Positions 2,894 to 17,171 of a DNA stretch of 64,000 nucleotides are shown here, in pieces. The notes below the pieces were generated by a model. The model saw only the letters and a list, made by a program, of their open reading frames with translations. It ran no database searches and was not told the DNA's origin. Each line of letters opens with the position of its first letter. The first letter of the stretch is position 1. Source of the stretch: Thermodesulfobacteriota bacterium. Lineage in GTDB: Bacteria; Desulfobacterota; Deferrimicrobia; Deferrimicrobiales; Deferrimicrobiaceae. A program made the translations under genes and the position numbers. Location of the stretch: assembly GCA_040758155.1 (NCBI GenBank), contig JBFLWB010000144.1, positions 5,481-69,480 of the forward strand. The letters run 5' to 3'.

Positions 2894-3337
2894 TCAGGCG
2901 ACCCTTTCCTCCGGCCTGAGCTCGATCTGCTTCTCCATAAGCGCCATGTCGAAGAGGTGGGTGACCGATTCCACCGTTCCCTCCTCCCCGACATCGACCG
3001 TCATGGTCACGGGGACGTCGATCTTCTTCCCGGTCGGGAAGATCGTCCCCCCCGGCGTGTCGATCGGACCTTCGTGGGTCCCGGTCCACTTCAAGATGAA
3101 GCTCGCGGTCTTGCCGTAGTCCGACATGTCCTTGATCTCTATCTTCGAATCGGGGAAAGAGGCTCCCCATTCCTGCATGATGGTCATGAACCTCTTGATG
3201 CCGTGCGTTTTCCTGCGCGTGGGAATCTCGTCCAGGACGATCCTCCAGTCGGACAGGGCCCACAACCCGGCCCAGTCCTTCTTCGCGTACGCTTCAACGA
3301 ACGCCTTCGCGATGTCGACCGGCAACTTCTCCGACAT
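2894..3337 (-). CDS. SnoaL-like/NTF2-fold ester cyclase family protein
   Basis: A 147-aa ORF with an ester-cyclase-like N-terminus (VAKAFVEAYAKKDWAGL, DWRIVLDEIP). Its GC content is visibly lower than that of neighbouring genes. Confidence 0.55.
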   Translation of the reverse strand: MSEKLPVDIAKAFVEAYAKKDWAGLWALSDWRIVLDEIPTRRKTHGIKRFMTIMQEWGASFPDSKIEIKDMSDYGKTASFILKWTGTHEGPIDTPGGTIFPTGKKIDVPVTMTVDVGEEGTVESVTHLFDMALMEKQIELRPEERVA

Positions 3338-3435
3338 TTCGTCCTCCTGACGCCTCTTGAGATGTCATGGTCACGGATTGACGGCTCGCCGATACCTCAA
3401 AATAGGATTATTCTCGATATCGCAACGGTTCGGTC

Positions 3436-3620
3436 TAAACCCGCATTTCTCTCCAGCCTCCTACTGCGGCGGCGGATACGGGCATGTCTACTGCGTTGCG
3501 CTCGGTCGGGCTCCTCGACGCACTTTCAAGTGCGCCTCCGGGGCCCTCGGTCGCGACGCCTTGTAGCCACGCCCGTCTCCACCGCCTCGCTACGGACGCT
3601 GGTGAGAAATGCGGGTTTTA
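3436..3620 (+). ncRNA. Candidate structured small RNA, rod-shaped with a 6S-RNA-like architecture, in an otherwise non-coding 335-nt gap
   Basis: A 22-bp near-perfect inverted repeat (TAAACCCGCATTTCTCTCCAGC ... GCTGGTGAGAAATGCGGGTTTTA) closes a ~140-nt GC-rich segment. The interior folds by hand into consecutive stems (ACGGGC/GCCCGU, CUAC/GUAG, GCGUUGCG/CGCGACGC, GGGCUCC/GGGGCCC, apical GCAC-UUUCAA-GUGC) with an internal loop flanked by a CUCGGUC direct repeat. The 3' arm is followed by UUUUAAAGUUUU. Strand assignment is tentative. Confidence 0.35.
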
Positions 3621-3672
3621 AAGTTTTCCGGTGTCTTGCCGATGAATCATCCGGACCGGAAGGAGGCCATCC

Positions 3673-4068
3673 TTGGGATCCGAGGGGAAGCGAAAAGTCC
3701 TGTTGATGGACGACGAGGAAATGGTGAGGTCGGTCGTCGGAGAAATGCTGAAGATGTTCGGTCACGAGGTGGAGTTCGCCAGGGACGGTAAGGAAGCCAT
3801 CGACCTGTACGTGAAGGCGAAGGAATCCGACCAGCCCTTCTCCGCGGTGATCGTCGACCTGAACGTCCCCGGCGGGATGGGGGGGAGGGAGGCCGTGGAG
3901 GAGCTCCGCAGGATCGACTCCGGCCTGAAAGCCGTCGTCTCCAGCGGTCATTCGAGCGACCCCGTCGTGACGAACTACCGGGAATACGGCTTCGACGCCG
4001 TGATCTCCAAGCCGTTCCGCGTCTCGGATCTCGGCGACACCCTGCGGATGCTGGATTGCGGGCCCTGA
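3673..4068 (+). CDS. Stand-alone response regulator receiver (CheY-like) protein
   Basis: REC-domain hallmarks are present: LLMDDEE acidic pocket, phospho-acceptor Asp in VIVDLNVPGGMGG, and SSGHS ... KPF. Confidence 0.85.
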   Translation: MGSEGKRKVLLMDDEEMVRSVVGEMLKMFGHEVEFARDGKEAIDLYVKAKESDQPFSAVIVDLNVPGGMGGREAVEELRRIDSGLKAVVSSGHSSDPVVTNYREYGFDAVISKPFRVSDLGDTLRMLDCGP

Positions 4069-4080
4069 CGCCCCGCCGCG

Positions 4081-4383
4081 CTAACTCTCCAGCTTTTCCC
4101 TGACGGCCTGCAGTTTCCCCTCGATCGTTCCCTTCTTGTCGCGCCGGTCGTCGATCCGGATCGAGGTCGACACCCGCATGGCCCCTTCGCCGAAGGGCTG
4201 CTCGTGCATTTTCCTGAGGACGGGCAGGATCGCGTCGAGGTCGCCCTCGATGATCGTTCCCATCGCGGTCAGCTCGTGCTTGAGACCGCTGTCGCGGAGC
4301 ACCCGCTCCACCCCGGCCACAAAGCGGGAAACGCTCGGCGTGGCGGTCCCGAGCGGGACCACGGTGACGAATACGACGGCCAT
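4081..4383 (-). CDS. MTH1187/YkoF-family (UPF0045) small protein
   Basis: MAVVFVTVVPLGTATPSVSRFVAGVERVLRDSGLKHELTAMGTIIEGDLD matches the MTH1187/YkoF ferredoxin-like fold family. An internal Met is chosen as the start over the longer ORF to 4425. Confidence 0.65.
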   Translation of the reverse strand: MAVVFVTVVPLGTATPSVSRFVAGVERVLRDSGLKHELTAMGTIIEGDLDAILPVLRKMHEQPFGEGAMRVSTSIRIDDRRDKKGTIEGKLQAVREKLES

Positions 4384-4444
4384 GGACGACCTCCGTTCCG
4401 ATCGGTTTTCCTGGAAATGTATCATGAATCGCGGCCGGGCATTC

Positions 4445-5215
4445 CTACCCCCGCCGGGACGGCTTCCGCCGCGCGGCGGCGCTCCCGCGGGCGCCGGGCG
4501 TCTCCTGCCCGCGGATGAACCGGGCGAGGCGGCCCACGTTCACCCGAAGGTACTTCCCGTCGCGGCGGGCCATCCCCATCCTGCGGAACCTGCCGAGCTG
4601 CGTCGTCACGGTTTCCCGCGTGGTGCCGATCAGGTTCGCAAGCTCTTCGTGGGTCAGGCGGACCGCGATCTCCGTGCCTCCCGGGGCCTTCACGCCGTGC
4701 TCCCCGGCGAGCCGCAGGAGGATCCTGGCCAGGCGGTGATAGGACCAGGTGTGGCCGAAACTCGCGTACTCCTGCTCGACCTTCGCGAGGCGCCTGGAAA
4801 GGATGCGGATGAAATTCATGGAGAACGCGGGGACCGTCGCCAGCAGTCGCTCGAGCGCGCGCCTGGGAAGGGCGGCGACCTCGGAGTCCTTCCCGGCGAG
4901 GGCCGTGAACGTCCGCCGGTCCTCGGAGAACAGGAGCTCCCCGAAGATCGCGCCGGGCGGGAGCATGTGAAGGATCGTCTCCGTTCCGCGCCCGGAATGG
5001 GAGACCAGCTTGACCATCCCATCCTTCACGATGAAGAGCGCGTCGCCGGAATCTCCCCGCTCGAAGATCACGCGGCCCTTCGGATATTTCCGTTCCGTGA
5101 ACAGGGGGAGGATCCTGTCCAGCTCCGCCTTCTCCATCCCGAGGAACAGGTCGTTCGCCGTGATGACGGAAAGCCCCATGGAATCCAATTTATCGCCCTT
5201 CCGGGGGAAGAGCAA
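4445..5215 (-). CDS. Crp/Fnr-family transcriptional regulator (cNMP-binding domain plus C-terminal HTH)
   Basis: A cNMP-binding beta-roll (GDSGDALFIVKDGMVKL, FGELLF) is followed by a C-terminal HTH (LTHEELANLIGTTRETVTTQLGRFRRMG). There is no Fnr-type N-terminal Cys cluster. The start could be the internal Met at 5179. Confidence 0.85.
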   Translation of the reverse strand: MLFPRKGDKLDSMGLSVITANDLFLGMEKAELDRILPLFTERKYPKGRVIFERGDSGDALFIVKDGMVKLVSHSGRGTETILHMLPPGAIFGELLFSEDRRTFTALAGKDSEVAALPRRALERLLATVPAFSMNFIRILSRRLAKVEQEYASFGHTWSYHRLARILLRLAGEHGVKAPGGTEIAVRLTHEELANLIGTTRETVTTQLGRFRRMGMARRDGKYLRVNVGRLARFIRGQETPGARGSAAARRKPSRRG

Positions 5216-5324
5216 TCCGGTCGGGGGCTATCATCCGGAATTGTGAAAGGTTTCACAGAACGGTTCCTGCGCGGAGAATTACGCTTTCCTTATGCAGACG
5301 CCATGAAGGCGAAAGGGGATCGCG

Positions 5325-6233
5325 ATGGAAAACGAAAGCGGGAGAGGATTCGGCTCCCTTTACATAAACGAAAGGGAAGGCAAGCCGCGGAAAAGGGGAG
5401 TGACGGAGATCCGGGGTCCGTATTACACGCCCCTCGGGAAGCGGGCGCTCCAGGACATCCTGGAAACGATGGGCGAGTACGTGGACATCTTCAAGTTCAG
5501 CGGCGGCTCTTTCGTCCTCATGCCGGAGAAGTCGGTCCGCGACCTGATCGATCTCTGCCACGGGGACGACGTCCTCGTGTCCACGGGCGGGTTCATCGAG
5601 CACGTGCTGACGATGGGGCCGGATGTCGTGGACCGGTACCTCGAGGAGTGCCGGCGGGTGGGATTTGACATCGTGGAGGTATCTTCGGGGTTCATCTCGA
5701 TCCCCGACGACGACCTCGTCCGCCTCGTTGAGAAGGTCCGCGGGCTCGGGATGCTGCCGAAGCCCGAGGTCGGGATCCAGTTCGGGGCCGGCGGCGCAAG
5801 CCCCGCCGCGGAGCTGGAAGCCGAGGGGGTGGCGGACCCGGACCGGGCGATCCGCCAGGCGAAGCGGTACCTGGACGCGGGGGCCCACCTGGTGATGATC
5901 GAGTCGGAGGGGATCACCGAAAACGTCAAGGCATGGCGCACCGGCGTCCCGGCCCGGTTCATCCGGGAGCTCGGGCTGGAAAACGTGATGTTCGAGGCGG
6001 CCGACCCGGACGTGTTTTCCTGGTACGTGAAGTCGTACGGCCCGGAGGTGAACCTGTTCGTGGACCACTCCCAGATCGTGCAGCTCGAATGCCTGCGCTC
6101 CGGTATCTGGGGAACCGCGGGAACGTGGGGCCGCGTGGTCACCTATAAAGTGCCCGCGAGAGGGCGCGCGGCGCCCGCGGCGGGCGTGCGGCAGCTGAAG
6201 GTCGCGGCGAAGGTCCGGGGGAAGGCGGCATGA
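5325..6233 (+). CDS. comA: (2R)-phospho-3-sulfolactate synthase (ComA) family protein
   Basis: Aligns by eye with archaeal ComA across its length (YVDIFKFSGGSFVL, VLVSTGGFIEHVL, GFDIVEVSSGFISIPDDD, YLDAGAHLVMIESEGIT, NVMFEAADPDVFSWYVKSYGPEVNLFVDHSQIVQLECLRSG). Confidence 0.8.
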   Translation: MENESGRGFGSLYINEREGKPRKRGVTEIRGPYYTPLGKRALQDILETMGEYVDIFKFSGGSFVLMPEKSVRDLIDLCHGDDVLVSTGGFIEHVLTMGPDVVDRYLEECRRVGFDIVEVSSGFISIPDDDLVRLVEKVRGLGMLPKPEVGIQFGAGGASPAAELEAEGVADPDRAIRQAKRYLDAGAHLVMIESEGITENVKAWRTGVPARFIRELGLENVMFEAADPDVFSWYVKSYGPEVNLFVDHSQIVQLECLRSGIWGTAGTWGRVVTYKVPARGRAAPAAGVRQLKVAAKVRGKAA

Positions 6234-7627
6234 GCCCCCGGGGCGGGGCCGATTCGGCCCGTCTTCTCCACGGGCGGACGCGGCTCCAGGAACTGTCGAC
6301 GTTCGTGCACCGGGCGGAATGGGACGGCATCTCCCGCGCCGCCCGGAAGGCGCTCAAGATCAGAGTGCTCGATTCCCTCGGGTGCGCCTGGGGCGCCATG
6401 GAGGCCGGACCGATCCGGAAGATCCGGCGGCACGTGGCGGAGTTCGGCGGCAAGCCGCTCTGCACGCTCATCGGGGGCGGCCGGACGTCGCCCGACCGGG
6501 CTGCGTTCTACAATTCCGCTCTGATCCGCTACCTCGATTTCAACGACAGCTACCTCGCGAAGGGGGAGACGTGCCACCCCAGCGACAACCTGGGGGCCGT
6601 GCTGGCGGCGGCGGAATACGCGGGGATCTGCGGGAGAGAGCTGCTCGCCTCCCTCGCGGCGGCGTACCAGGTGCAGTGCCGCCTGTCGGACGTCGCCCCG
6701 CTGCGCGCCCGCGGTTTCGACCACGTCACGCAGGGCGTCATCGCCGCGGCGGCGGGGGCGGGGAGGGCCCTGTCGCTCGACGAGGAACAGCTGGCGAACG
6801 CCCTGGCGATCGCGGCGACCGCGAACAACGCGGTGCGCGCCACCCGGACGGGGGAGCTCTCCCACTGGAAGGGGCTGGCCGCCCCCAACGCGGCGTTCAA
6901 CGGGCTGCGCGCCGCCTTCCTCGCGAAGGAGGGGATCACCGGGCCCGCCGGCGCCTTCGAGGGGCCGAAAGGGTGGATGCAGGTCGTCTCCGGGCCGTTC
7001 GAGATCGATTGGGAGGGCGAGGGGCTGGAGCGTGTGAGCCGCACCGTCCTGAAGAAATACAACGCGGAGATCCACTCCCAGTCCGCGATCGAGGGGCTGC
7101 TCGGCATGATGGAGGCGGAGCGGTTCACGGGCCGGCAGATCGCGCGGATCCGCGTGGAGATCTTCGACGTCGCCTTCCTGATCATCGGGGGAGGCGCCGA
7201 GGGGGACAAGACGGTCGTGCGGACGAAGGAGGAGGCAGACCACAGCCTTCCCTACATCCTGGCCGTGGCCGCGCTGGACGGGGAGGTGACCCCCGCGCAA
7301 TATGCGCCGGAGCGGATCCTGCGGGACGATGTCCAGGAGCTTCTCCGGAAGGTGGAGGTCGTGCCGGATCCCGTCTTTTCCGCCCGTTTTCCGGAGGAGC
7401 ATGCCTGCCGCCTGACCGTCGCCCTGAGAGACGGCCGGATCCTCACCCGGGAGAAGACCGACTACGAGGGTTTCCACACCCGGCCGATGTCCATGGACGG
7501 GGCCGCCGGGAAGTTCCGCCGGGTCGCGGACGGCTCTCTGGATCCCGCGCGGATGGAGTCCGTCATCCAGGCGGTTTCCGGGATGGAGAACCTCACGGCG
7601 AGGGAGCTGGCCGGCTTTCTCGTGTAG
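6230..7627 (+). CDS. MmgE/PrpD-family protein (2-methylcitrate dehydratase-like)
   Basis: A 465-aa protein with MmgE/PrpD-family length and motifs (IRYLDFNDSY, GAVLAAAEYAG, HWKGLAAPNAAFNGLRAAFLAKEG). Its ATG overlaps the comA stop (ATGA). Confidence 0.8.
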   Translation: MSPRGGADSARLLHGRTRLQELSTFVHRAEWDGISRAARKALKIRVLDSLGCAWGAMEAGPIRKIRRHVAEFGGKPLCTLIGGGRTSPDRAAFYNSALIRYLDFNDSYLAKGETCHPSDNLGAVLAAAEYAGICGRELLASLAAAYQVQCRLSDVAPLRARGFDHVTQGVIAAAAGAGRALSLDEEQLANALAIAATANNAVRATRTGELSHWKGLAAPNAAFNGLRAAFLAKEGITGPAGAFEGPKGWMQVVSGPFEIDWEGEGLERVSRTVLKKYNAEIHSQSAIEGLLGMMEAERFTGRQIARIRVEIFDVAFLIIGGGAEGDKTVVRTKEEADHSLPYILAVAALDGEVTPAQYAPERILRDDVQELLRKVEVVPDPVFSARFPEEHACRLTVALRDGRILTREKTDYEGFHTRPMSMDGAAGKFRRVADGSLDPARMESVIQAVSGMENLTARELAGFLV

Positions 7628-7633
7628 CCGCGC

Positions 7634-8617
7634 TCACACGTGGTTGCGCAGCATCAGCTCGACGGGGTGGGGATGGAGGAAAACCTGCCGCTCCAGGTAG
7701 GGGACCCTGTACTTGCGGACGTAATGGTTGATCAGCGTGACGGGGACGATCAGCGGGATCATGCGGTTCCTGTACCGATCGACCACCTCGAGCAGCTCCT
7801 GCTTCTCTTCGTGCATCAGGAGCACCCGGAGATGCCCCATCATGTGGACGAGCACGTCGGCGCACCTGGCGGGGGTGGCGCGCTGCGCCAGCGCCTCCAT
7901 CAGGAGCCGCTGGTAGCGTTCGTAGAGCTCGTCCGGAGGGAGATCCTTCGAGCGGCCCACGAGTTGCCCCATCTCGGTGTACCGCGTCCTCCCGTGGGCG
8001 AGGATCAGCATCTTGTGGTCGGTGTGGAACCCCGCGAGGTTCCCCCGGGACTTTCCCCTGCGAAGCGACTCGCGGAACCGGCGCAGGGTGAACATGCGCT
8101 CGATGAACATCTCCCGGAGGATCGGGTCCTGGAGCCGGCCTTCCTCCTCCACCGGGATCAGCGGGAAATGCTCCATGAACGCCTTCGTGAACAGCCCCGC
8201 GCCCACCTTGGCCGGGACTCCGTCCGCGCCGAACACCTTGACGCGCTCCATCCCCGAGGTCGGCGAGTCCTTCTTGCAGATGTAGCCGCTCAGGTCGGAC
8301 TCCTCGAGGTTCCGCAGCTTCTTCCGGCCGTAGGACAGCATCAGGTCGGTGAAATCCGTACCCGTCCCCGCCCCGACAAGCCGGGGGGCGTCCGGGTTCC
8401 CCTTCAGGCGCATGGCCTCCCTCGGGACCGGGAAGCCGCACTCCACTTCAGGGCACACGGGGACGAATTCCACGAACCGGCCCAGCGTCTCCGTGAGGAA
8501 GGGATCCCTCTTGTGACTGCCGTCGTAACGGACCTTCTCGCCCAGCAGGCAGGAGCTGATCAGGATCCGGATCGGCCCGCCCGGGGGATCCCTGCGCGAA
8601 GTCTCTTCGGTTTCCAT
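7634..8617 (-). CDS. DUF523 (2-thiouracil desulfurase-like) plus DUF1722 protein, YbgA family
   Basis: The N-terminal ILISSCLLGEKVRYDGSHK motif typical of DUF523/YbgA is followed by a DUF1722-like helical C-terminal half. Confidence 0.8.
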   Translation of the reverse strand: METEETSRRDPPGGPIRILISSCLLGEKVRYDGSHKRDPFLTETLGRFVEFVPVCPEVECGFPVPREAMRLKGNPDAPRLVGAGTGTDFTDLMLSYGRKKLRNLEESDLSGYICKKDSPTSGMERVKVFGADGVPAKVGAGLFTKAFMEHFPLIPVEEEGRLQDPILREMFIERMFTLRRFRESLRRGKSRGNLAGFHTDHKMLILAHGRTRYTEMGQLVGRSKDLPPDELYERYQRLLMEALAQRATPARCADVLVHMMGHLRVLLMHEEKQELLEVVDRYRNRMIPLIVPVTLINHYVRKYRVPYLERQVFLHPHPVELMLRNHV

Positions 8618-8690
8618 TTAGTGCATTATAAACAACGATTCCCGCGTTGGTGTATTCTCTTATAATTTGGTTGACCGAGGAGGGCTTGGC

Positions 8691-9995
8691 ATGTCCGGAA
8701 CCGGACCGATCCTGATCGTCGACGACGAAGCGAGCATCCGGCAGTCGCTGGAAGGCGTCCTGGCCGACGAGGGATATTCCTGCATCCTGGCGGGGGACGG
8801 GGCCGAGGCGATAGCGCGGCTCCGGGATTCGCGGCCGGCGCTCGTGCTTCTCGATATCTGGATGCCGGGCATGGACGGCCTCGAGACGTTGCGCCGGATC
8901 AAGGAGGAGAGCCCCCGCACCCCCGTCGTCATGATGAGCGGGCACGCGACGATCTCGACCGCGATCCGCGCCACGAAGGACGGCGCCGCCGATTTCATCG
9001 AGAAGCCGCTGGAGATCGAGACGGTGCTGAACGCCATCCGCCGCGCGCTCGGGTCCGGCGAGGGCGCGGCGGAAGCGGGCGGGGGAGAGGCCTCCGTGCC
9101 GGCCGGCCTTCACGATGCAGCCGAGCTTCCCGAGCTGAAGACCGTGGTGTTCGCGAAGCAGGCGCTTCCCGGCGACCGGATGCCGCAGAGGACGCTCGCC
9201 CGCGGGGCGGTGATGTACGGGCAGGGGCTCCACTCGGGGAAGAAGAGCGGGCTGATCTTCGAGCCGCTCGGGCCCGGATCCGGGATCCATTTCGCCGGCG
9301 TCTCGGACAACCGGCCGATCCCGGCGCACATCGATTTCGTCGGGTCGACCGGATGGGCCACGACGATCCGCCTCGGGACCACCCAGGCGGCCACCATCGA
9401 GCACGTCATGTCCGCGCTGAACGCGTACGGGATCTCCAACCTGCTCGTCAAGTGCGACGGGGAGGTTCCGGTCCTGGACGGCTCCGCCGTCGAGATCTGC
9501 AACCTGATCGAGGAAGTCGGAATGGTGGAGCAGAAGGGGGACTGGCGGCGGATCGCGCTTTCGGAGCCGATCCAGGTCGATTCGGGGAAGGCGTCGATCC
9601 GGCTGGAGCCGTTCGACGGGTTCGAGATCGATTACACGCTCGAGTACCCCGCGCCCGTCGGGAAGCAGCGCTTCGTATTCCGCCTCGGCGACCCGTCGGA
9701 CTTCCGCAGGGAGATCGCCCCGGCCCGGACCTTCGGATTCGCCAGGGACATCGGCGCGCTGCAGAAGCAGGGACTTGCGCTGGGAGGCCGCTTCGACAAC
9801 TTCGTCCTGTTCGGGGACGAGGGGCCGATCAACGGAGCGCTCCGGTTTCCGGACGAGCCCGTCCGCCACAAGATCCTCGACGCGTTCGGCGACTTCTACC
9901 TCCTCGGGCGGCGCCTCCAGGCGAGGGTGATCGCCCGCATGACGGGGCATTCGCACAACATCGCCCTGCTGAAGAAGGTCCGCGAGCTGATGTGA
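8691..9995 (+). CDS. Response-regulator receiver domain fused to an LpxC-type deacetylase domain (REC-LpxC)
   Basis: The N-terminal REC (ILIVDDEASIR, VLLDIWMPGMDG, VVMMSGH, FIEKPL) is followed by a full LpxC fold that aligns with E. coli LpxC (RTLARGAVMYGQGLHSGKKSGLIFEP, TIEHVMSALNAYGISNLLVKCDGEVPVLDGSA, ARTFGFARDIGALQKQGLALGGRFDNFVLF, VRHKILDAFGDFYLLG, MTGHSHNIALLKKV). Zinc-ligand and catalytic positions are conserved. A GAGGAGGG ribosome-binding site lies 7 nt upstream of the ATG at 8691. Confidence 0.85.
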   Translation: MSGTGPILIVDDEASIRQSLEGVLADEGYSCILAGDGAEAIARLRDSRPALVLLDIWMPGMDGLETLRRIKEESPRTPVVMMSGHATISTAIRATKDGAADFIEKPLEIETVLNAIRRALGSGEGAAEAGGGEASVPAGLHDAAELPELKTVVFAKQALPGDRMPQRTLARGAVMYGQGLHSGKKSGLIFEPLGPGSGIHFAGVSDNRPIPAHIDFVGSTGWATTIRLGTTQAATIEHVMSALNAYGISNLLVKCDGEVPVLDGSAVEICNLIEEVGMVEQKGDWRRIALSEPIQVDSGKASIRLEPFDGFEIDYTLEYPAPVGKQRFVFRLGDPSDFRREIAPARTFGFARDIGALQKQGLALGGRFDNFVLFGDEGPINGALRFPDEPVRHKILDAFGDFYLLGRRLQARVIARMTGHSHNIALLKKVRELM

Positions 9996-10024
9996 CCATC
10001 AGAATACCTACCGGAGAGACAGCC

Positions 10025-11056
10025 ATGCGAACGAGAACGCCGATTCACCTCTTCCTCGCGGCCCTTGCGGCCGGAATCCTCTGCGCGCCCGTACCCGCCT
10101 CCGCCGCCGCGGACGCGCCGATCAAGCTCACCTACGCCAACTTCCCGCCCGCCCCCACCTTCCCCTGCGTGCAGATGGAGCACTGGGCGCGGGAGGTGGA
10201 GAAGCGGACCGCGGGGAAGGTGAAGGTCCAGACCTTCCCGGGCGGGACGCTTCTCCCCGCGAAGAACATCCTGGACGGCGTCATATCCGGCCTCGCCGAC
10301 ATCGGGAACTTCGCCATGAGCTACCAACCGGGCCGGTTTCCCTTGTCCGAGGCCATCGACCTCCCGCTGGGGTTCACGAGCTCCCGGGTCGCCAGCCTGA
10401 CGCTTTACGACCTCATGGAGAAATACAAGCCGAAGGAATTCGACCAGGTGAAGATCCTGGCGCTCTTCACCTGCCCCCCGACCAACTTCATGACCCGGAC
10501 CCCCGTGAAATCGCTCGCCGACCTCAAGGGGATGGAGCTCCGGGTGGCGGGGACCTCCGCGGAGATCGTCAAGCGGCTCGGCGGGATCCCGGTCGCCATG
10601 CCGCAGTCCGAGACCCCCGAGGCGATCCAGAAGGGGGTGGTGAAGGGGATCGTCTCCTCCATGGAGATCCTCCAGGACTTCAAGTTCGCGGCCTATACGC
10701 CCAACGCCACCGTCGCCAACCTGCCCGTGGTCTCCTTCGCGGTCGTGATGAACAAGCAGAAGTGGGACTCTCTGCCGGCCGACGTGAAAAAGGTCCTGGA
10801 CGACATGCGGCGGGAACACTCCCTTTGGACCGGGAACTACGTCGACGGCCACGTGGAGGAGGCGCTGGGCTGGTCGAAGAAGAGCTACGGGCTCCAGGTC
10901 CACACCCTTCCCGCGAGCGAGGCCGAGACCGTGAAGGGGCTGCTCCGGCCGCTGACCGAAGATTACATCAAGCGGGTTACCGCCCTCGGCCTGCCCGGCG
11001 ATCAGATCGTCGCCGACGCGCTGGCGCTGAAGAAGAAGCACGAGCTGCAGAAATAG
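10025..11056 (+). CDS. dctP: TRAP transporter substrate-binding subunit (DctP family)
   Basis: A signal peptide is followed by DctP-family solute-binding features (LTYANFPPAPTFPCVQMEHWAREVEKRTAGKVKVQTFPGGTL ... GMELRVAG). The gene is an internal-start portion of ORF 9353..11056. Confidence 0.85.
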   Translation: MRTRTPIHLFLAALAAGILCAPVPASAAADAPIKLTYANFPPAPTFPCVQMEHWAREVEKRTAGKVKVQTFPGGTLLPAKNILDGVISGLADIGNFAMSYQPGRFPLSEAIDLPLGFTSSRVASLTLYDLMEKYKPKEFDQVKILALFTCPPTNFMTRTPVKSLADLKGMELRVAGTSAEIVKRLGGIPVAMPQSETPEAIQKGVVKGIVSSMEILQDFKFAAYTPNATVANLPVVSFAVVMNKQKWDSLPADVKKVLDDMRREHSLWTGNYVDGHVEEALGWSKKSYGLQVHTLPASEAETVKGLLRPLTEDYIKRVTALGLPGDQIVADALALKKKHELQK

Positions 11057-11066
11057 CGGATCCGCA

Positions 11067-11552
11067 ATGGGACTGGAAAGGCTGACGGAGCTGCTCCGGC
11101 GGGGGCTGATGTACCTCGCCGGAGCAGCGCTGCTGGGGGTCACGCTGCTGGCGACGGCCAACGTCGTCCTGCGGATCTTCCGGGTCCCCGTGGGCGGCGC
11201 CTACGAGGTCGTCTCCTTCCTCGGGGCGCTCGTCACGGCCGGCGCGCTCGGCTACACCCAGAAGCGCAGGCACCACATCGTGGTGGACATCCTCTCGGAC
11301 CGGTATCCTCCCGCGCTCAAGCGCGTCGTCGACCGGGTAAGCCAAGCCGCCATGCTCCTCCTGTTCGCCGTCGTCTCCTGGCAGACGGCGGCCTACGGGG
11401 TGCGGCTGATCCGGGTGGGGGAGCTCTCGGAGACGCTGAAGTTCCCGTTCCACCCCTTCGTGTTCCTCGTCGCCCTGGGTTTCGCCGTCCTCGCGCTGAC
11501 GATCTTCCTCGATCTCGTGGAGTCCTTCTGGGCAGAGGAGGAGAAGCGTTGA
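11067..11552 (+). CDS. dctQ: TRAP transporter small permease (DctQ family)
   Basis: A 161-aa protein with four predicted TM segments, sized and placed between DctP and DctM. Confidence 0.8.
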   Translation: MGLERLTELLRRGLMYLAGAALLGVTLLATANVVLRIFRVPVGGAYEVVSFLGALVTAGALGYTQKRRHHIVVDILSDRYPPALKRVVDRVSQAAMLLLFAVVSWQTAAYGVRLIRVGELSETLKFPFHPFVFLVALGFAVLALTIFLDLVESFWAEEEKR

Positions 11553-12853
11553 GCGGTCCCGCCATCGGCCTGCTGGGGATCGGGGCGATGTTCCTCATCC
11601 TGTTCCTCCTGCGCATCCCCGCGGCATTCACCATGATGCTCGTGGGCTCCGCGGGGATCGCCCTGATGACCTCGTTCGACGCGGCGTGCGCGATCGTAGG
11701 GACGGAGATGTGGAACATCTTCTCGAACTACGGGCTGACGGTGATCCCGCTGTTCATCCTGGTGGGGGAGATCGTCCACTACGCCGGCTACAACTTCAGC
11801 GTCTACGACGCGACGTACAAATGGTTCGGGCACTTCCGGGGCGGGCTCGCCATGACCACGATCATGGCATCGGCGGCCTTCTCGGCCATCTCGGGGTCCA
11901 ACACGGCGACGGCGGCCACGATGAGCGCGGTCGCGATCCCCGCGATGAAGGAGTACAAGTACCACCCGCTGCTCAACGCCGGCGCGGTCTCCGCGGGCGC
12001 GACGCTCGGCGTCCTGATCCCGCCCTCGCTCGTCCTCGTCGTGTACGGGCTCTACACGGGGCAGTCCATCGGGAAGCTGTTCTTCGGCAACATCATCCCC
12101 AGCGTCATCTTGACGCTGGCCATCCTCGGCACGGTGGTTTGGATCTGCCGCATCCATCCCGACTGGGGCGCGGCGGGGCCGCGGTTCGGATGGAAGGAGC
12201 GGCTGAAGGCGCTGCCGGAGGCGGCCGACATCCTCGTCCTCTTCGGGATCATCATGTACGCGATGTTCACCGGGGTCGTCACCGCGACGGAGGCGGCCGC
12301 CGTGAGCTGCTTCCTCGGATATGCGATATGCCTTGCGAGACGCAAACTTACATGGAAGAAGTTCATCGATTCCATGAAGGACACCCTGCGGATCTCCTGC
12401 ATGGTCTTCATGATCGTGGCGGGCGCGGTGGTCTTCGCGCGCTTCCTGACGCTGACCCGCCTGCCGTTCGAGATCGCGGAGTGGATCGGAACGCTCGCCC
12501 TCCCCCGGTGGATGGTCCTGTGGGTGATCCTCGGATGCTACATCCTGGGCGGCTGCGTCATGGACGCCCTTGCGTTCCTCCTCGTGTCGCTGCCGATCTT
12601 CTACCCGCTGGTCGTCCAGCTCGGCTACGACCCGATCTGGTTCGGGCAGGCGGTGACGATCGTCACCACGATGGGCGCCATCATGCCTCCCATCGGGATC
12701 TGCTGCTACGTCGTCTCCGGGATGTCCGGCATACCGTTATCGACCGTCTTCCGCGGCTCCTTCTACTATTTCCCCGCCTACATCGTCTCCATCGTCATCC
12801 TCATGATCTCCCCGTACTGGACGGTGCTCGTGCTGTCCGACATGGTGCGGTGA
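11549..12853 (+). CDS. dctM: TRAP transporter large permease (DctM family)
   Basis: A 434-aa polytopic membrane protein of DctM type (LFILVGEIVHYAGY, GSNTATAATMSAVAIPAMKE). Its start overlaps the dctQ stop. Confidence 0.85.
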   Translation: MSGPAIGLLGIGAMFLILFLLRIPAAFTMMLVGSAGIALMTSFDAACAIVGTEMWNIFSNYGLTVIPLFILVGEIVHYAGYNFSVYDATYKWFGHFRGGLAMTTIMASAAFSAISGSNTATAATMSAVAIPAMKEYKYHPLLNAGAVSAGATLGVLIPPSLVLVVYGLYTGQSIGKLFFGNIIPSVILTLAILGTVVWICRIHPDWGAAGPRFGWKERLKALPEAADILVLFGIIMYAMFTGVVTATEAAAVSCFLGYAICLARRKLTWKKFIDSMKDTLRISCMVFMIVAGAVVFARFLTLTRLPFEIAEWIGTLALPRWMVLWVILGCYILGGCVMDALAFLLVSLPIFYPLVVQLGYDPIWFGQAVTIVTTMGAIMPPIGICCYVVSGMSGIPLSTVFRGSFYYFPAYIVSIVILMISPYWTVLVLSDMVR

Positions 12854-12870
12854 CGGGAGTACGCGGCTCC

Positions 12871-14703
12871 ATGAACCGTCCGATGCTCATGCTGGGAAAC
12901 GAAGCGATCGCGCTCGCGCTGATCGAGAACGGCTGCCGGGTCGCCGCGTCGTACCCGGGGACGCCCGCATCCGAGATCCTCTCCGCCGTGGCGAAGCTGC
13001 GCAACGATCGCGGGATCCCGATGCACGCGGAATGGTCGGTGAACGAGAAGGTCGCCTTCGAGATCGCCTACACCGCGAGCGTCGCGGGGCTGCGCGCGGC
13101 GGCGGGCATGAAGCAGGTGGGGCTGAACGTGGCGTCCGACCCGCTGATGAGCGCCGTCTACTCGGGCGTGAAGGGCGGCTTCCTCGTCATCTCCGCGGAC
13201 GACCCCGGTCCGCACTCCTCACAGACCGAGCAGGACAGCCGGCTCATGGCGATGGTCGCCAAGCTCCCCGTGCTCGACCCCGATTCCCCCGCCCATGCCC
13301 GGGATCTGGTGGCGCTCGGGTATGAGCTGTCGGAAAAGTTCGAGATCCCCGTGATGCTCCGCCCCACGACGCGTGTGTGCCACGCGTGCCAGGACATCCT
13401 GCCCGGCGATTCCGTTCCTCCGGCGGGAGAGGCCGATTTCCGGAAATCTCCCTCCCGCTGGGCGGCCACGCCGGTCTTCCGCAACCTGCTTCACAAAGAG
13501 CTGACCACGAAGCTGGCAGAGATCGCCGGGTGGGCGCCGACCGCTCCGATCCGATGGAATCCGGACGCGTCGGGGACGCGAGCCGTTGTCGCCTCCGGCG
13601 TCGCCGCGGCCCACGCTCGGGAGGTCCTGGAAGGGCTCGGGCTGTGGGGGAGCGTGCCCTTTTACCAGGTGCTCCAGCCGTTTCCTCTGCATGCCGACTT
13701 CGTGTCCCACGTCCTTGGAAGCTACGGGGAGATCCTCGTGCTCGAGGAGACGGCAGCGGTCATCGAGATGCAGCTTCTCGACCGGGGGCGCGTCAGGGGG
13801 AAGGCGACCGGCGCTGTGCCCGAGGCGGGGGAGCTGCTGCCGGAGGAGATCGAGCGCATCGTCTCGGAGTTCGCCGGGATCGGGGCGGGAAAACCCGCGG
13901 AGAGGGGTGCGCCTCCGCCGGGCCGCCGTCCCACCCTGTGCGCGGGATGCCCGCACCGCGCGAGCTTCTACGCGATCCGGCGCGCCGCCCCCAACGGGAT
14001 CTACCCGAGCGACATCGGCTGCTACACGCTGGGGCTGAACCTGGGGGCGGTCGACACGGTCCTGTGCATGGGTGCGGCGGTCGGCCAGGCAGCGGGCTTT
14101 TACCAGGCATACCGGCTCGGCGGGAAGACGGTCGACATCGTCGCGACGATCGGCGACTCCACCTTCTTCCACGCGGGGATCCCCGGGCTGATCGACGCGG
14201 CGGTACAGAAGGCGAAGTTCGTCCTCGTGATCCTCGACAACGCGATGGCGGCCATGACGGGAGCGCAGCCCACGCCGGCTACCGGGTGCGGGGCGATGGG
14301 CGAGCCGACCGGTATCGTCGACATGGAGGCGCTCGTCCGCGCCTGCGGCGCCGGCTTCTGCAAGGTGGGAACGCCGTCCCGGTTCGACGAGTTCGTCGCC
14401 CTCCTCAAGGAGGCGCTCGCGTACAGCCGCGAGAACGGCCCGGCCGTGGTGATCGCCCGGGAGCCGTGCGTGATGTCGCTTGGGGGGAAGGCGCGAGCGG
14501 ATGCCCCGAAGGCGGTCGTCACCGACGCGTGCGCCGGCTGCCGGCACTGCGTAGACCGGTACGAGTGCCCGGCGATCGTCTTCGACGAGGATGGGAAGCG
14601 CGCCTGCATCGACGGGTTCCACTGCGCGGGCTGCGGCGTCTGCCTGCACGTCTGCCCCCTGGGCGCGATCCGCGCCGGCGGCGGGGAAGGGGGGGCGCCG
14701 TGA
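12871..14703 (+). CDS. iorA: Indolepyruvate:ferredoxin oxidoreductase alpha subunit (IorA)
   Basis: N-terminus MLMLGNEAIALALIENGCRVAASYPGTPASEIL, a TPP-binding region (GCYTLG, IGDSTFFHAG) and a C-terminal 2x[4Fe-4S] ferredoxin domain (CAGCRHCVDRYECP ... CAGCGVCLHVCP). Confidence 0.9.
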   Translation: MNRPMLMLGNEAIALALIENGCRVAASYPGTPASEILSAVAKLRNDRGIPMHAEWSVNEKVAFEIAYTASVAGLRAAAGMKQVGLNVASDPLMSAVYSGVKGGFLVISADDPGPHSSQTEQDSRLMAMVAKLPVLDPDSPAHARDLVALGYELSEKFEIPVMLRPTTRVCHACQDILPGDSVPPAGEADFRKSPSRWAATPVFRNLLHKELTTKLAEIAGWAPTAPIRWNPDASGTRAVVASGVAAAHAREVLEGLGLWGSVPFYQVLQPFPLHADFVSHVLGSYGEILVLEETAAVIEMQLLDRGRVRGKATGAVPEAGELLPEEIERIVSEFAGIGAGKPAERGAPPPGRRPTLCAGCPHRASFYAIRRAAPNGIYPSDIGCYTLGLNLGAVDTVLCMGAAVGQAAGFYQAYRLGGKTVDIVATIGDSTFFHAGIPGLIDAAVQKAKFVLVILDNAMAAMTGAQPTPATGCGAMGEPTGIVDMEALVRACGAGFCKVGTPSRFDEFVALLKEALAYSRENGPAVVIAREPCVMSLGGKARADAPKAVVTDACAGCRHCVDRYECPAIVFDEDGKRACIDGFHCAGCGVCLHVCPLGAIRAGGGEGGAP

Positions 14704-15284
14704 ACGGGCGCGCGGTGCGGGGCGGGGATGTCCGTCAGCAGATCCTCGTCAGCGGCGTGGGGGGGCAGGGGGTGCTCTTCGTTTCCCGGCTCCTGGCCGA
14801 GGCGGCCATCTGCCGCGGGATGAGCGTCCTGACGTCCGAGATCCACGGCATGGCGCAGCGGGGCGGGACGGTGGTGTCCCACGTGAAGGTGGGCGGCTTC
14901 CCGGGTCCCCTGATCCGCGAGGGGAAGGCCGACGGCATCGTCGTGCTCCGGGAGGAGAACCTTCCCGCCCACCGGCGCTTCCTGTCTCCTTCCGGGTGGG
15001 CCGCGGTGAATTCCACGGCCCCGGGGGCGGCTCCCCCCGATCCCCGCGTCCTTTTCGTCGACGCCGGGGGGATCGCGGTGAAGGCGGGGATGCCGAAAGG
15101 GATCAACCTGGTCCTGATCGGGTATCTTCTCGCGCGGCTCGATTCCGCGGGAGAGGGGGGGCGGATCTTCTGCGAACCGGAAGACATCCGGGAGGCGCTG
15201 GGCGCCCGCTTCGCGCGGAATCCCCGCGTCCTAGAGGAGTCCCTGGCGGCGTTCGCGCTGGGAATACGTCACGGTAGGGAATGA
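14700..15284 (+). CDS. iorB: Indolepyruvate:ferredoxin oxidoreductase beta subunit (IorB)
   Basis: A GTG start overlaps the iorA stop. Contains ILVSGVGGQGVLFVSRLLAEAA, the typical IorB/gamma-like CoA-binding Rossmann motif. Confidence 0.8.
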   Translation: MNGRAVRGGDVRQQILVSGVGGQGVLFVSRLLAEAAICRGMSVLTSEIHGMAQRGGTVVSHVKVGGFPGPLIREGKADGIVVLREENLPAHRRFLSPSGWAAVNSTAPGAAPPDPRVLFVDAGGIAVKAGMPKGINLVLIGYLLARLDSAGEGGRIFCEPEDIREALGARFARNPRVLEESLAAFALGIRHGRE

Positions 15285-16588
15285 GGTATCAAGCCATGCT
15301 CAAAAGATTCCCCCCGAAATACTCATCCGTCGACGCGCTTCCCGGCTACCAGCTCCGGGGGCTCCAATGGACGGTGTCGCACGCCTTCCGGCACTCCCCC
15401 TTCTACCGCCAGCGCCTCGAAGCGGCGGGGGTGACGCCCGGAGACATCCGCTCGCTCGACGACATCCGGCGGCTCCCCTTCACGACGGCGGACGACCTGA
15501 GGGAGGGGTACCCGCTGCCGCTTTTGTCGGTCGATCCGAAGGAGATCGTGCGGATCCATTCCTCCTCGGGGACCACGGGGAAGCGGAAGGTCCTTTGCTA
15601 CACGCAGAAAGACGTCTCCGACTGGGGCTGCATGTTCGCCCGCTGCTTCGAGATGGCGGGGCTCACGCAGGAGGACCGTGTTCAGATCTGCGTGGGGTAC
15701 GGGCTCTGGACGGCCGGGGCGGGCTTCCAGGCGGGAGTGGAGAAGTTCGGCGCGATGGCCATCCCCGTGGGGCCGGGGAACCTCGACCTGCAGTGCACCT
15801 TCCTGCTCGATCTGCGGTCGACCGTCCTCTGCTGCACCGCCTCCATGGGGCTGCTGCTGGCGGAGGAGGTGCACCGGCGGGGGATCCGCGGCCTGCTCAA
15901 ACTGAAGAAGGTCATCCTCGGGGCGGAGCGGACCAGCGACGCGATGATCGCGACGATCAAGGCGCTGCTGGGCGTCCGGGAGGTGTACGACATCCCGGGG
16001 CTCACGGAGCTGTACGGCCCCGGGACGGGACTGTCGTGCCGCCACGAGTCGGGGATCCACTACTGGGCCGACTACTACATCCTCGAGCTGCTCGACCCGG
16101 AAACGCTGGAGCCGGTCAAGCCCGGCGAGATCGGGGAGATGGTGTTCACCACGCTCGGCAAGGAAGGGTCGCCCCTCATCCGGTACCGGTCGCGCGACCT
16201 GACGCGGACGGTCGAGGGCGTCTGCCAGTGCGGCTGCATCCTGCCGCGGCACGACAAGATCCTCGGCCGCTCCGACGACATGATCGTCTTCCGGGGAGTC
16301 AACGTGTATCCCGGGCAGCTCGACGAGGTGCTCTCAAGGATCGACGGGGCCGGAAGCGAGTTCCAGGCGCACATCGAGCGGCGGGAGGACGGGAAGGACT
16401 ACATGACCATCAAGGTGGAGCGGGGGGCCCACATGGGCGAGGGCGCCGACGGCCCCATCGCCTCCGCGATCGCCGGGGAGATCAAGCACAACCTGATGGT
16501 ATCGTGCAACGTGCAGGTCGTCCCGTACGGGTCGCTCCCGAGGTCCGAGAAGAAGACCCGGAGGGTGTTCGACAGCCGCGTGTTCTGA
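15281..16588 (+). CDS. paaK: Phenylacetate-CoA ligase (PaaK) / coenzyme F390 synthetase family
   Basis: Shows the SSGTTGKRKV AMP-binding motif, PaaK-like length (about 435 aa) and a C-terminal domain (GVNVYPGQLDEVL). The ATG overlaps the iorB stop; an alternative start is at 15296. Confidence 0.85.
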   Translation: MRYQAMLKRFPPKYSSVDALPGYQLRGLQWTVSHAFRHSPFYRQRLEAAGVTPGDIRSLDDIRRLPFTTADDLREGYPLPLLSVDPKEIVRIHSSSGTTGKRKVLCYTQKDVSDWGCMFARCFEMAGLTQEDRVQICVGYGLWTAGAGFQAGVEKFGAMAIPVGPGNLDLQCTFLLDLRSTVLCCTASMGLLLAEEVHRRGIRGLLKLKKVILGAERTSDAMIATIKALLGVREVYDIPGLTELYGPGTGLSCRHESGIHYWADYYILELLDPETLEPVKPGEIGEMVFTTLGKEGSPLIRYRSRDLTRTVEGVCQCGCILPRHDKILGRSDDMIVFRGVNVYPGQLDEVLSRIDGAGSEFQAHIERREDGKDYMTIKVERGAHMGEGADGPIASAIAGEIKHNLMVSCNVQVVPYGSLPRSEKKTRRVFDSRVF

Positions 16589-16616
16589 GGGGGCATCCGC
16601 GCTCCGGAGGCGGACT

Positions 16617-17171
16617 TTACGGTTTCGAGACGAACGGATTCCCTCTGATGTAGAACCGCAGGAGCCGGCCGGCCCAACGGCGGCCGGCGTAGTCGACGCC
16701 GACCCGGGGCCTCTTCACGATCGCGGCGGGGGAGGCGCCGGGCTCCTCCGCGATGAAAAAACCGTCGCCCGTCAGGTCGTGCGCGTTCAGGCGCCGGTCG
16801 ATCCCCATCGCCTTGCACAACCGGCCCGGCCCGTTCGTGGCGGCGTCGACGTTCGCCACCGGTTCGAGGGCGCGCAGCAATACGGCCGAGGCGTGCCCTT
16901 CGCCCTCCGTGACCACGTTCATGCAATGGTACATGCCGTACACAAGGTAGATGTACGCGTGTCCCGGCGGCCCGAACATGACCCGGGTCCGCCCCGTCAT
17001 CCCCTTCGACGAATGGCAGGCGAGGTCGTGCGGCCCGACGTACGCCTCGACCTCCACGATCCGCGCGACCCGGTCCTTTCCGTCAACGTTGTGGACGAGC
17101 AGCTTCCCGAGCAGCTCCTGGGCGACTTCCACGGTGTTCCTGTCGTAGAAGGAGCGGGGGAGCTTCTTCAC
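16617..17171 (-). CDS. DNA-3-methyladenine glycosylase (Mpg/AAG family)
   Basis: A 184-aa protein with a GTG start overlapping the upstream activase stop by 4 bp. Carries the family pattern AQELLGKLLVH...ARIVEVEAYVGPHDLACHS...GHAYIYLVYGMYHCMNVV. Confidence 0.8.
   Translation of the reverse strand: MKKLPRSFYDRNTVEVAQELLGKLLVHNVDGKDRVARIVEVEAYVGPHDLACHSSKGMTGRTRVMFGPPGHAYIYLVYGMYHCMNVVTEGEGHASAVLLRALEPVANVDAATNGPGRLCKAMGIDRRLNAHDLTGDGFFIAEEPGASPAAIVKRPRVGVDYAGRRWAGRLLRFYIRGNPFVSKP

Follow-up and report, generated by a model that had tools for sequence, protein, structure and literature searches.

The closest described relatives of the proteins examined in this study are the phosphosulfolactate synthases ComA, YitD and XcbB (EC 4.4.1.19; structures 1QWG and 1U83) and the enzymes of the MmgE/PrpD family (structures 1SZQ, 5MUX and 6S62). 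The canonical partners of ComA are ComB, ComC and ComDE or, in bacterial coenzyme M (CoM) synthesis, XcbC, XcbD and XcbE; XcbC, a succinyl-substrate lyase, eliminates phosphate from phosphosulfolactate (PMC9457059). The known MmgE/PrpD substrates all share a 1,4-dicarboxylate backbone and are converted by an enolate mechanism (PMC12290011). In a stretch of 64,000 nucleotides from a Thermodesulfobacteriota bacterium (contig JBFLWB010000144.1; the whole stretch is hereafter the window), a gene for a ComA-like protein is followed by a gene for a PrpD-like protein. Both enzyme families are known, while the pairing is undescribed in the searchable literature: full-text searches found no link between ComA or phosphosulfolactate and MmgE/PrpD, the sole co-mention being unrelated (SAR11 transporter islands). 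The two genes form a conserved functional unit, and their distribution suggests a self-contained, horizontally mobile two-enzyme module.

A conserved two-gene unit

The initial annotation of the window had called the two genes, an ATGA overlap between them, a divergent Crp-family regulator and an absence of nearby CoM genes. These observations all held: the Pfam ComA domain and both MmgE/PrpD domains match exactly at the called positions, the stop/start overlap can be read directly, the regulator carries three Crp-type domains (Table 1), and a Pfam scan of nearly all predicted genes in the window found no comB, comC, comD, comE, xcbC, xcbD, xcbE, suyAB or other sulfonate genes. The overlap suggests that the two genes are translationally coupled, and the same 4-nt overlap is found in the closest relatives (loci L002, L097 and L098). 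The GC3 values of the two open reading frames (ORFs), 0.88 and 0.92, are those expected of real genes in a 67% GC genome (window GC approximately 67%). Since a convergent DUF523/DUF1722 gene ends immediately downstream, the operon consists of the ComA-like and PrpD-like genes only; the adjacency of this third gene is not kept at other loci. No riboswitch or other RNA was found upstream, Rfam at gathering thresholds giving 0 matches in the window.

The pairing is not unique to the window genome. A single scan, in which the PrpD-like protein was run against a collection of species-representative genomes, returned at least 502 relatives, the best 80 loci being 58-71% identical. When adjacency was scored by tblastn for the ComA-like protein in 83 loci fetched via close PrpD-like homologues, the two genes directly adjoined each other in 72. 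Among 66 loci scored for gene order, 21 had ComA then PrpD, the order of the window's lineage (often with a 4-nt overlap), and 45 had PrpD then ComA, the order of most other phyla, with a spacer of 40-700 nt. The pair spans more than 15 phyla of bacteria and archaea, including Thermodesulfobacteriota and Actinomycetota. The hosts among the best 80 loci include Deferrimicrobiaceae, Syntrophobacteraceae, Geobacteraceae, several Chloroflexota classes, Acidobacteriota, Gemmatimonadota, Armatimonadota, Nitrospirota (including Ca. Manganitrophus), Ca. Brocadia (one complete genome), Zixibacteria, Calditrichaceae, Fraserbacteria, Eisenbacteria and Solirubrobacterales, as well as the archaeal Thermoplasmata and Bathyarchaeia. 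Each protein has more than 100 orthologues at 64-83% identity (more than 100 at 70-83% for the ComA-like protein), and their pairwise distances are correlated (Mantel r = 0.75, a value reached by 0 of 2000 permutations). This correlated divergence fits co-inheritance or co-transfer, with shared species phylogeny also contributing. A more distant ComA-like protein (42% identity) likewise has a PrpD-like neighbour, in convergent orientation.

Complete plasmid and megaplasmid records gave a similar picture, with the PrpD-like gene also present on 24 of the 26 replicons carrying the ComA-like gene (at least 58% identity); the two were directly adjacent on approximately 15 of these replicons and mostly 0.7-7 kb apart on the remainder. 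Cultured hosts with the genes on such replicons include Haloferax mediterranei (pHM300), Halogeometricum, Halopiger, Natrinema, Halorussus, Salinibacter ruber (pSR116), Methylocystis and Methylosinus trichosporium OB3b. Together, the adjacency at 72 of 83 loci and the co-occurrence on 24 of 26 replicons place the pairing far beyond chance. On the OB3b plasmid pOB3b2, the pair lies between insertion sequence (IS) elements and resembles a mobile two-gene cassette (Table 1). No ComA-PrpD gene fusions were found among the matches; the one long match considered as a fusion (P0283, 862 aa) is a gene model from a fungus, with a transcription-factor domain attached.

No third gene accompanies the pair consistently. 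In an all-vs-all clustering of 2564 ORFs of at least 90 aa from 84 loci, the most recurrent neighbours, a DCC1-like thiol-disulfide oxidoreductase and a DUF488 protein, occurred at only 8 loci each, and in a Pfam census of the 127 nearest neighbours no family was found in more than 5 proteins (Pyr_redox_2 in 5). The recurrence of the same two genes in otherwise unrelated surroundings, along with their association with plasmids and IS elements, suggests that their function is self-sufficient.

The neighbourhoods also bear on the possibility that the pair is a variant of CoM biosynthesis, with the PrpD-like protein in place of XcbC or ComB. The first step would then be shared, and a non-homologous phosphate lyase would mirror XcbC (PMC9457059); however, xcbA, xcbD, xcbE, comC, comD and comE are all missing from the surroundings of the pair, both at the 83+ loci and in the window, in contrast to the true xcb-type cluster of Mycolicibacterium chubuense NBB4 (L090). 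The ComA-like protein is also only 28% identical to the ComA of that cluster. Haloarchaea, Salinibacter, Brocadia, Chloroflexota and other hosts of the pair are not known to use CoM, which likewise counts against a CoM variant. We regard this explanation as highly improbable, and the departure from canonical CoM biosynthesis proposed in the initial annotation is upheld.

Active sites of the two proteins and the chemistry they suggest

The PrpD-like protein recognizably belongs to the MmgE/PrpD family. Its family profile gave E. coli PrpD as the best match among known structures (1szq, E 1e-44), followed by B. subtilis MmgE, cis-aconitate decarboxylase (CAD) and IDS epimerase (2HP0, E 7e-27), and Foldseek retrieved only MmgE/PrpD-fold proteins, at 20-23% identity. 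The AlphaFold2 model (pLDDT 72, moderate) confirms the fold, with low confidence in the loops of interest. In CAD, residues D93, T97, H103, K207 and K272 are among those reported to bind the 1,4-dicarboxylate part common to the substrates and to stabilize the enolate (PMC12290011). The corresponding positions were invariant or nearly so in 43 sequences: D103, D106 and S107 align to CAD D93, D96 and T97, H116 to H103, K214 to K207 and K275 to K272. The same holds for D164-H165 (GLDH in PrpD), for E280, H282 and Q284 of the AE.HSQ motif, and for D337-H338-S339. The active-site residues His277 and Tyr318 of CAD are replaced: the A-E280-I-H-S-Q motif places Glu280 at the His277 position, as in PrpD, and the Tyr318 position is Phe in the window protein and His in the clade consensus. 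Directly after the latter position follows an invariant Gly-rich insert, I318-I-G-G-G-A-E-G-D-K327. Neither PrpD nor CAD has this insert, and it is also missing from a second MmgE/PrpD paralogue that is not linked to ComA and is encoded on a Chloroflexi contig (L035) 1.2 kb from the pair. The insert is thus specific to the ComA-linked subfamily. Because the catalytic residues are kept while family-specific cut-offs are not reached and the insert is its own, the protein appears to be a catalytically competent member of a new subfamily.

These features also address the simplest explanation, that the gene encodes an ordinary 2-methylcitrate dehydratase (or CAD) whose adjacency to a ComA-like gene is meaningless. 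Some sources do name homologues '2-methylcitrate dehydratase', and the catalytic residues are PrpD-like. However, the protein scores far under all PrpD equivalog cut-offs (172 bits vs 950 for NF042438, 146 vs 575 for NF006943 and 119 vs 458 for TIGR02330), is 20-23% identical to every characterised family member, and has no prpB, prpC, acn or prpF gene in the window or among the recurrent neighbours of the pair; Glu280 at the His277 position speaks against CAD in particular. Moreover, adjacency in two gene orders and many phyla, with correlated divergence, effectively refutes this explanation, to which we attach almost no probability.

The ComA-like protein matches PF02679 over its full length and is a (beta/alpha)8 barrel like 1QWG and 1U83. 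These two structures were the top Foldseek matches (1qwg, E 7e-18, TM 0.83 by target; 1u83, E 7.5e-16, TM 0.87), with generic phosphoenolpyruvate (PEP)/pyruvate TIM barrels ranking ten orders of magnitude below them. The AlphaFold2 model (pLDDT 77, moderate) again confirms the fold while leaving the loops of interest at low confidence. Signature residues were defined as those identical in three validated types of phosphosulfolactate synthase, namely the ComA of Methanocaldococcus jannaschii (Mj), B. subtilis YitD and NBB4 ComA, and each was checked in 46 members of the ComA-like clade. The residues kept are D54, K57, E92, E118, S120, E148, E193, E224, N243, E255 and R258 (D40, K43, E79, E103, S105, E133, E168, E205, N224, E237 and R240 in Mj numbering), a set that comprises the acidic core at the C-terminal face of the barrel and the beta1 lysine, K57. 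From these kept residues, we infer that the protein retains its enolate and metal chemistry, acting on an alpha-substituted carboxylate; with the acidic core and Lys57 in place, it still likely catalyses some related reaction in which a group is added to an enolate or eliminated from it.

In an exhaustive search against the representatives of clusters formed at 50% identity, whose names were then looked up, the closest named relative of the ComA-like protein was the plant protein HEAT-STRESS-ASSOCIATED 32 (HSA32), at 39-44% identity (Phoenix dactylifera, P0266) against 20-28% for the validated phosphosulfolactate synthases; Nitrososphaeraceae proteins also fall in this HSA32-type subfamily. 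In alignment, HSA32 and the ComA-like protein share a K-P-(E/Q) motif before beta5, a short beta6 loop without RESG, and a VDHS motif. HSA32 has been described as a ComA homologue with a long disordered beta5-alpha5 loop (bioRxiv 10.1101/2024.10.15.618377), and a low-confidence loop of the ComA-like model (residues 155-167) lies at the same place. Unlike the ComA-like protein, HSA32 has Q at the E148 position and D at the E193 position, so the plant protein may be non-catalytic, a dead descendant of the prokaryotic subfamily represented here. The known role of HSA32 is the stabilization of HSP101. MmgE/PrpD proteins are lacking in plants (PMC12290011).

Taken together, the ComA-like protein is predicted to be an Mg2+/enolate-type lyase that probably adds a nucleophile, by default sulfite, to PEP, and the PrpD-like protein is predicted to be an enolate-forming lyase or (de)hydratase acting on its partner's product. 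Our tentative reading, which we hold at somewhat less than an even chance, is that the two act in sequence on a small, highly anionic C3 acid, in a route from PEP and sulfite via 2-phospho-3-sulfolactate (PSL) to sulfoacrylate or sulfolactate. In the first step, the ComA-like enzyme, whose family membership is established and whose substrates are presumed, would add sulfite to C3 of PEP to give PSL. The PrpD-like enzyme would treat the carboxylate/phosphate/sulfonate tri-anion of PSL as an analogue of its family's substituted-succinate substrates, the sulfonate presumably mimicking the distal carboxylate. By analogy with XcbC and with PrpD hydratase chemistry, it would remove phosphate by beta-elimination to give 3-sulfoacrylate, which the same enzyme might rehydrate to sulfolactate. 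The module would thereby turn toxic sulfite into a stable organosulfonate, for scavenging, detoxification or solute formation, and a stand-alone, mobile, sulfite-consuming cassette would make sense as sulfite scavenging. Mechanistically, the most conservative alternative role for the PrpD-like enzyme is that of a PSL 2-epimerase. The fuller proposal, of a mobile two-enzyme pathway in more than 15 prokaryotic phyla in which an HSA32-type lyase puts sulfite or a related nucleophile on PEP and a PrpD-fold phosphate-lyase/hydratase leads to sulfoacrylate or sulfolactate, as a hitherto unrecognised way of detoxifying sulfite and forming organosulfonates and as the ancestral enzymatic context of HSA32, is possible but doubtful.

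Several results weigh against sulfite as the nucleophile and PSL as the intermediate. The ComA-like protein is only 20-28% identical to Mj ComA, B. subtilis YitD and NBB4 ComA, it scores 85.2 bits against a cut-off of 280 for the NCBIfam equivalog TIGR03849 (arch_ComA), and its clade is not orthologous to any validated PSL synthase. Within the active site, Mj K137 is replaced by an invariant Gln152 followed by an invariant F-G-A-G-G-A insert, the Mj loop G-R170-E-S-G has become S-E195-G-I-T-E (a charge reversal plus a five-residue deletion), and Mj K209 is replaced by Pro228; these three lost cationic residues could be the sulfite or phosphate binders, and Mj K137 may be the general acid. Also lost from the clade are Mj Q212, N227, W46 and T76. 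The altered part of the pocket, to judge from the alignment, is the one rich in the positive charges expected to hold sulfite or phosphate. For the partner, the usual PrpD-family mechanism deprotonates alpha to a carboxylate, whereas loss of phosphate from PSL needs deprotonation alpha to the sulfonate. In terms of gene context, no conserved exporter and no consumer of sulfoacrylate or sulfolactate lies beside the pair, no sulfur-related family is enriched among neighbours in the 83 loci from metagenome-assembled genomes (MAGs), approximately 10 loci have the PrpD-like gene with no ComA-like gene nearby, and Nitrososphaeraceae carry the ComA-like gene without the PrpD-like one.

Alternatively, the same two-enzyme module may perform other chemistry, with the HSA32-type ComA-like enzyme adding a different nucleophile to, or eliminating it from, an alpha-substituted acrylate. 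Water, sulfide or a thiol, an amine, or an oxyanion such as selenite, arsenite or phosphite could take this part, sulfite (or PEP) no longer being used, and the PrpD-like enzyme would make or consume the compound concerned, for example by dehydrating a hydroxy-polycarboxylate to the enoate used by its partner. The loss of three cationic PSL-synthase residues, the reversed charge from R170 to E195 and the distinct invariant set of the clade (Y33, Y34, H79, K146, E195, E199, R205, H248, W262, W268 and R270) all favour such a change, as do the absence of any known sulfonate role for HSA32 and the Nitrososphaeraceae proteins, the majority gene order of PrpD then ComA, the MAG neighbourhoods without sulfur enrichment, and the fact that known PrpD-family substrates are all true 1,4-dicarboxylates (PMC12290011). 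However, all characterised PF02679 members are PSL synthases, the new invariant cations of the clade (K146, R205, R270 and R30) could substitute for those lost, and no conserved neighbour points to a specific alternative substrate. In favour of the sulfite route, both proteins carry invariant Gly-rich inserts beside active-site positions, where phosphate or sulfonate could be bound, loops rich in glycine being typical binders of anions. Sulfur-related neighbours also recur in cultured halophiles: S. ruber has two DsrE genes, an FNT channel and DUF302, Haloferax has cysK, and Haladaptataceae have a sulfurtransferase, a large metallo-beta-lactamase (MBL)-fold hydrolase and DoxX. These neighbours, with which the DCC1-like genes at 8 loci may be counted, lend weak support to sulfite. 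Overall, other chemistry appears a serious though somewhat unlikely explanation.

Measured against the initial annotation, the active-site comparison is therefore divided: the acidic core and Lys57 of ComA are retained, and K137, the R170-ESG loop and K209 are lost. Identity as a genuine phosphosulfolactate synthase is not established, given the HSA32-type subfamily, the 85 vs 280 bits and the missing cationic residues. The suggestion of an undescribed sulfonate pathway accordingly stands in part, in that the pair is conserved, undescribed and separate from CoM synthesis, PSL synthase activity being no more than plausible.

Regulation and neighbouring genes

In the window, the pair diverges from a Crp/Fnr-family regulator whose helix-turn-helix domain carries a CRP-like R-E-T-V recognition motif and which reaches none of the NCBIfam equivalog cut-offs. 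Within the 109-bp intergenic region lies a perfect CRP-type palindrome, TGTGAAAGGTTTCACA (TGTGA-N6-TCACA), a candidate operator that is the sole match in the window at up to 1 mismatch (0.35 expected). The same divergent layout occurs in the two closest relatives, L097, which has an exact copy of the box, and L098, which has a copy with 1 mismatch; across the three sequences a 17-nt invariant block, ATTGTGAAAGGTTTCAC, holds the box, while the rest of the intergenic DNA has diverged. A promoter-like element, TTCACA-16-GAGAAT, matches by consensus only (1 site vs 0.3 expected), and its -35 hexamer overlaps the right arm of the box in a geometry like that of class II activators. The box agrees with TTGTGAnnnnnnTCACAA, the predicted consensus of Desulfovibrio HcpR, which has been linked to sulfate-reduction and nitrosative-stress genes (PMC545781); the match is not diagnostic of HcpR and serves as a lead only. 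In the window lineage, the adjacent regulator probably controls the operon through the conserved box, so that in the window genome and its closest relatives the divergent Crp-family protein would switch the two genes by binding TGTGA-N6-TCACA. Regulator homologues adjoin the pair in L012 and L020 as well. The regulator was considered as a general feature of the module and rejected, being present only in the window's lineage; its absence at other loci indicates that it is not part of the module proper.

Gene context also bears on a role in organosulfonate degradation, dissimilatory or assimilatory, in which the PrpD-like enzyme would hydrate or isomerize a sulfonated acid and the ComA-like enzyme would catalyse the reverse of its usual reaction, yielding sulfite and a PEP-like product. 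The addition of the ComA type can formally be reversed, many hosts are anaerobes with the potential to respire sulfite, MmgE/PrpD epimerases and isomerases could prepare the correct stereoisomer (PMC12290011), and work on SAR11 speculates on phosphosulfolactate uptake beside ComA homologues (PMC11796062). However, free sulfolactate needs a kinase to become PSL, and the pair has no conserved neighbour that is a kinase, a sulfonate transporter or a sulfite reductase; the transporter of the window lies 2.5 kb away and is not conserved at other loci, and the pair occurs in aerobic haloarchaea and methanotrophs. We consider degradation distinctly unlikely, and the dissimilatory role offered as an option in the initial annotation finds no backing in gene context, since neither a transporter nor a kinase is conserved.

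The transporter in question, of the tripartite ATP-independent periplasmic (TRAP) type, is separated from the pair by two unrelated genes. It belongs to a region with a DctP-family TRAP binding protein, two adjacent same-strand ORFs of permease-like size, a POR-gamma domain in a 635-aa ORF, an aryl-CoA-ligase-like gene of the AMP-binding family and two genes for HGD-D (2-hydroxyacyl-CoA dehydratase) proteins. This region resembles an island for the anaerobic catabolism of organic or aromatic acids, with no relation to the pair. In another single ORF of the window, a response-regulator receiver (aa 15-125) is fused with a complete domain of LpxC, the UDP-3-O-acyl-GlcNAc deacetylase (aa 174-438); the arrangement is unusual and suggests that lipid A synthesis is controlled by phosphorylation.

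Elsewhere, the ComA-like gene on Haladaptataceae megaplasmids is followed by the MBL-fold hydrolase gene (556-562 aa in Halorussus), the two partners in Halorussus halophilus are separated by a sulfurtransferase gene and a DUF1059 gene, and a histidine-phosphatase gene comes after the pair in Halogeometricum. Three very distant hosts, namely the window genome, 'Bacterium HR37' and Haloferax mediterranei (pHM300), carry a small PF01910 (Thiamine_BP/YkoF-like) gene close to the pair. This gene was rejected as a partner, as its presence in only 3 of approximately 95 loci may be due to chance.

Table 1. Positions of the gene pair and of associated features in the window and at other loci
Feature	Sequence	Positions	Strand	Details
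ComA-like gene	Window	5325-6233	+	302 aa; PF02679 (ComA) E 5.5e-78, 262 bits, model 1-242 of 243
PrpD-like gene	Window	6230-7627	+	465 aa; Pfam MmgE_PrpD_N E 7.8e-77, MmgE_PrpD_C E 2.5e-42
ATGA stop/start overlap	Window	6230-6233	+	Between the ComA-like and PrpD-like genes; read in sequence
Crp/Fnr-family regulator	Window	4445-5215	-	Pfam cNMP_binding 2.2e-21, HTH_Crp_2 1.8e-16, Crp 6.4e-08
CRP-type palindrome	Window	5242-5257	.	Candidate operator
Promoter-like element	Window	5252-5279	+	Consensus match
DUF523 + DUF1722 protein gene	Window	7634-8617	-	2-thiouracil desulfurase family; 6 nt between its stop codon and the PrpD-like stop
PF01910 small gene	Window	4081-4425	-	
PF01910 small gene	L042	8241-8552		
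PF01910 small gene	L084	4934-5251		
Receiver-LpxC fusion gene	Window	8667-9995	+	
Region with TRAP, POR-gamma, AMP-binding and HGD-D genes	Window	~10100-20363		Permease-size ORFs at 11067-12853
Pair between IS elements	L085 (M. trichosporium OB3b pOB3b2)	3310-10463		IS5 and IS6 transposases at one end, an IS66 element at the opposite end
Second MmgE/PrpD paralogue	L035 (Chloroflexi contig)	9492-10838	-	Without IIGGGxEGDK
Neighbour genes, Haladaptataceae/Halogeometricum	L087	6998-8683		
Neighbour genes, Haladaptataceae/Halogeometricum	L094	9307-10977		
Neighbour genes, Haladaptataceae/Halogeometricum	L095	11671-12414		

Significance and comparison with known systems

The pair is present in hundreds of genomes (at least 502 relatives), among them those of anammox bacteria, Deferrimicrobia, Chloroflexota, haloarchaea and methanotrophs. 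If sulfite is indeed the nucleophile, the module would represent a new biological source of C3 sulfonates, which are currencies of the sulfur cycle, as well as a new mechanism of sulfite tolerance, and the MmgE/PrpD family would gain a fifth type of reaction. Irrespective of the chemistry, the names currently assigned by automatic annotation, 'phosphosulfolactate synthase (CoM biosynthesis protein A)' and '2-methylcitrate dehydratase', probably mislead and would inflate predictions of CoM synthesis and the methylcitrate cycle in metagenomes. The kinship with HSA32 gives plant biologists a tractable prokaryotic model, and genetically tractable hosts such as Haloferax mediterranei and M. trichosporium OB3b make the function directly testable.

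Compared to ComA, YitD and XcbB, the ComA-like protein shares the Pfam family, the TIM-barrel fold, an N-terminal KPR motif and FEA223-225. It differs in having an invariant Gln and the 'FGAGGA' insert where these enzymes have a Lys at E+4 after beta5, in having 'S-E-G-I-T-E' where they have the 'G-R-E-S-G' loop after beta6, and in having a PrpD-fold protein as its partner. The PrpD-like protein shares with PrpD and MmgE the fold and the motifs LDFND(S/T), HPSDN, G(F/L)DH, K..(A)E.HSQ and ADHS, at approximately 22% identity, and differs from them by its insert and by the missing methylcitrate-cycle neighbours. IDS epimerase and the (S)-(R)-methylsuccinate isomerase share the same fold and a proposed enolate mechanism on substituted succinates (PMC12290011), but their profile match is weaker and the pair is without an itaconate or methylsuccinate gene context. 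Each of the two proteins thus belongs only to its wider family, the one not being ComA sensu stricto and the other not being PrpD. The proposed functional analogue of the PrpD-like enzyme is XcbC, the phosphosulfolactate phosphate-lyase of the aspartase/fumarase superfamily that leads to sulfoacrylate in bacterial CoM synthesis (PMC9457059); XcbC has a different fold and no homology to it, and is followed by XcbD, XcbE and XcbA toward CoM, whereas nothing follows the PrpD-like enzyme. By this analogy, the known system that the module appears to resemble most in its working is the opening of bacterial CoM synthesis, in which XcbB acts first and XcbC second.

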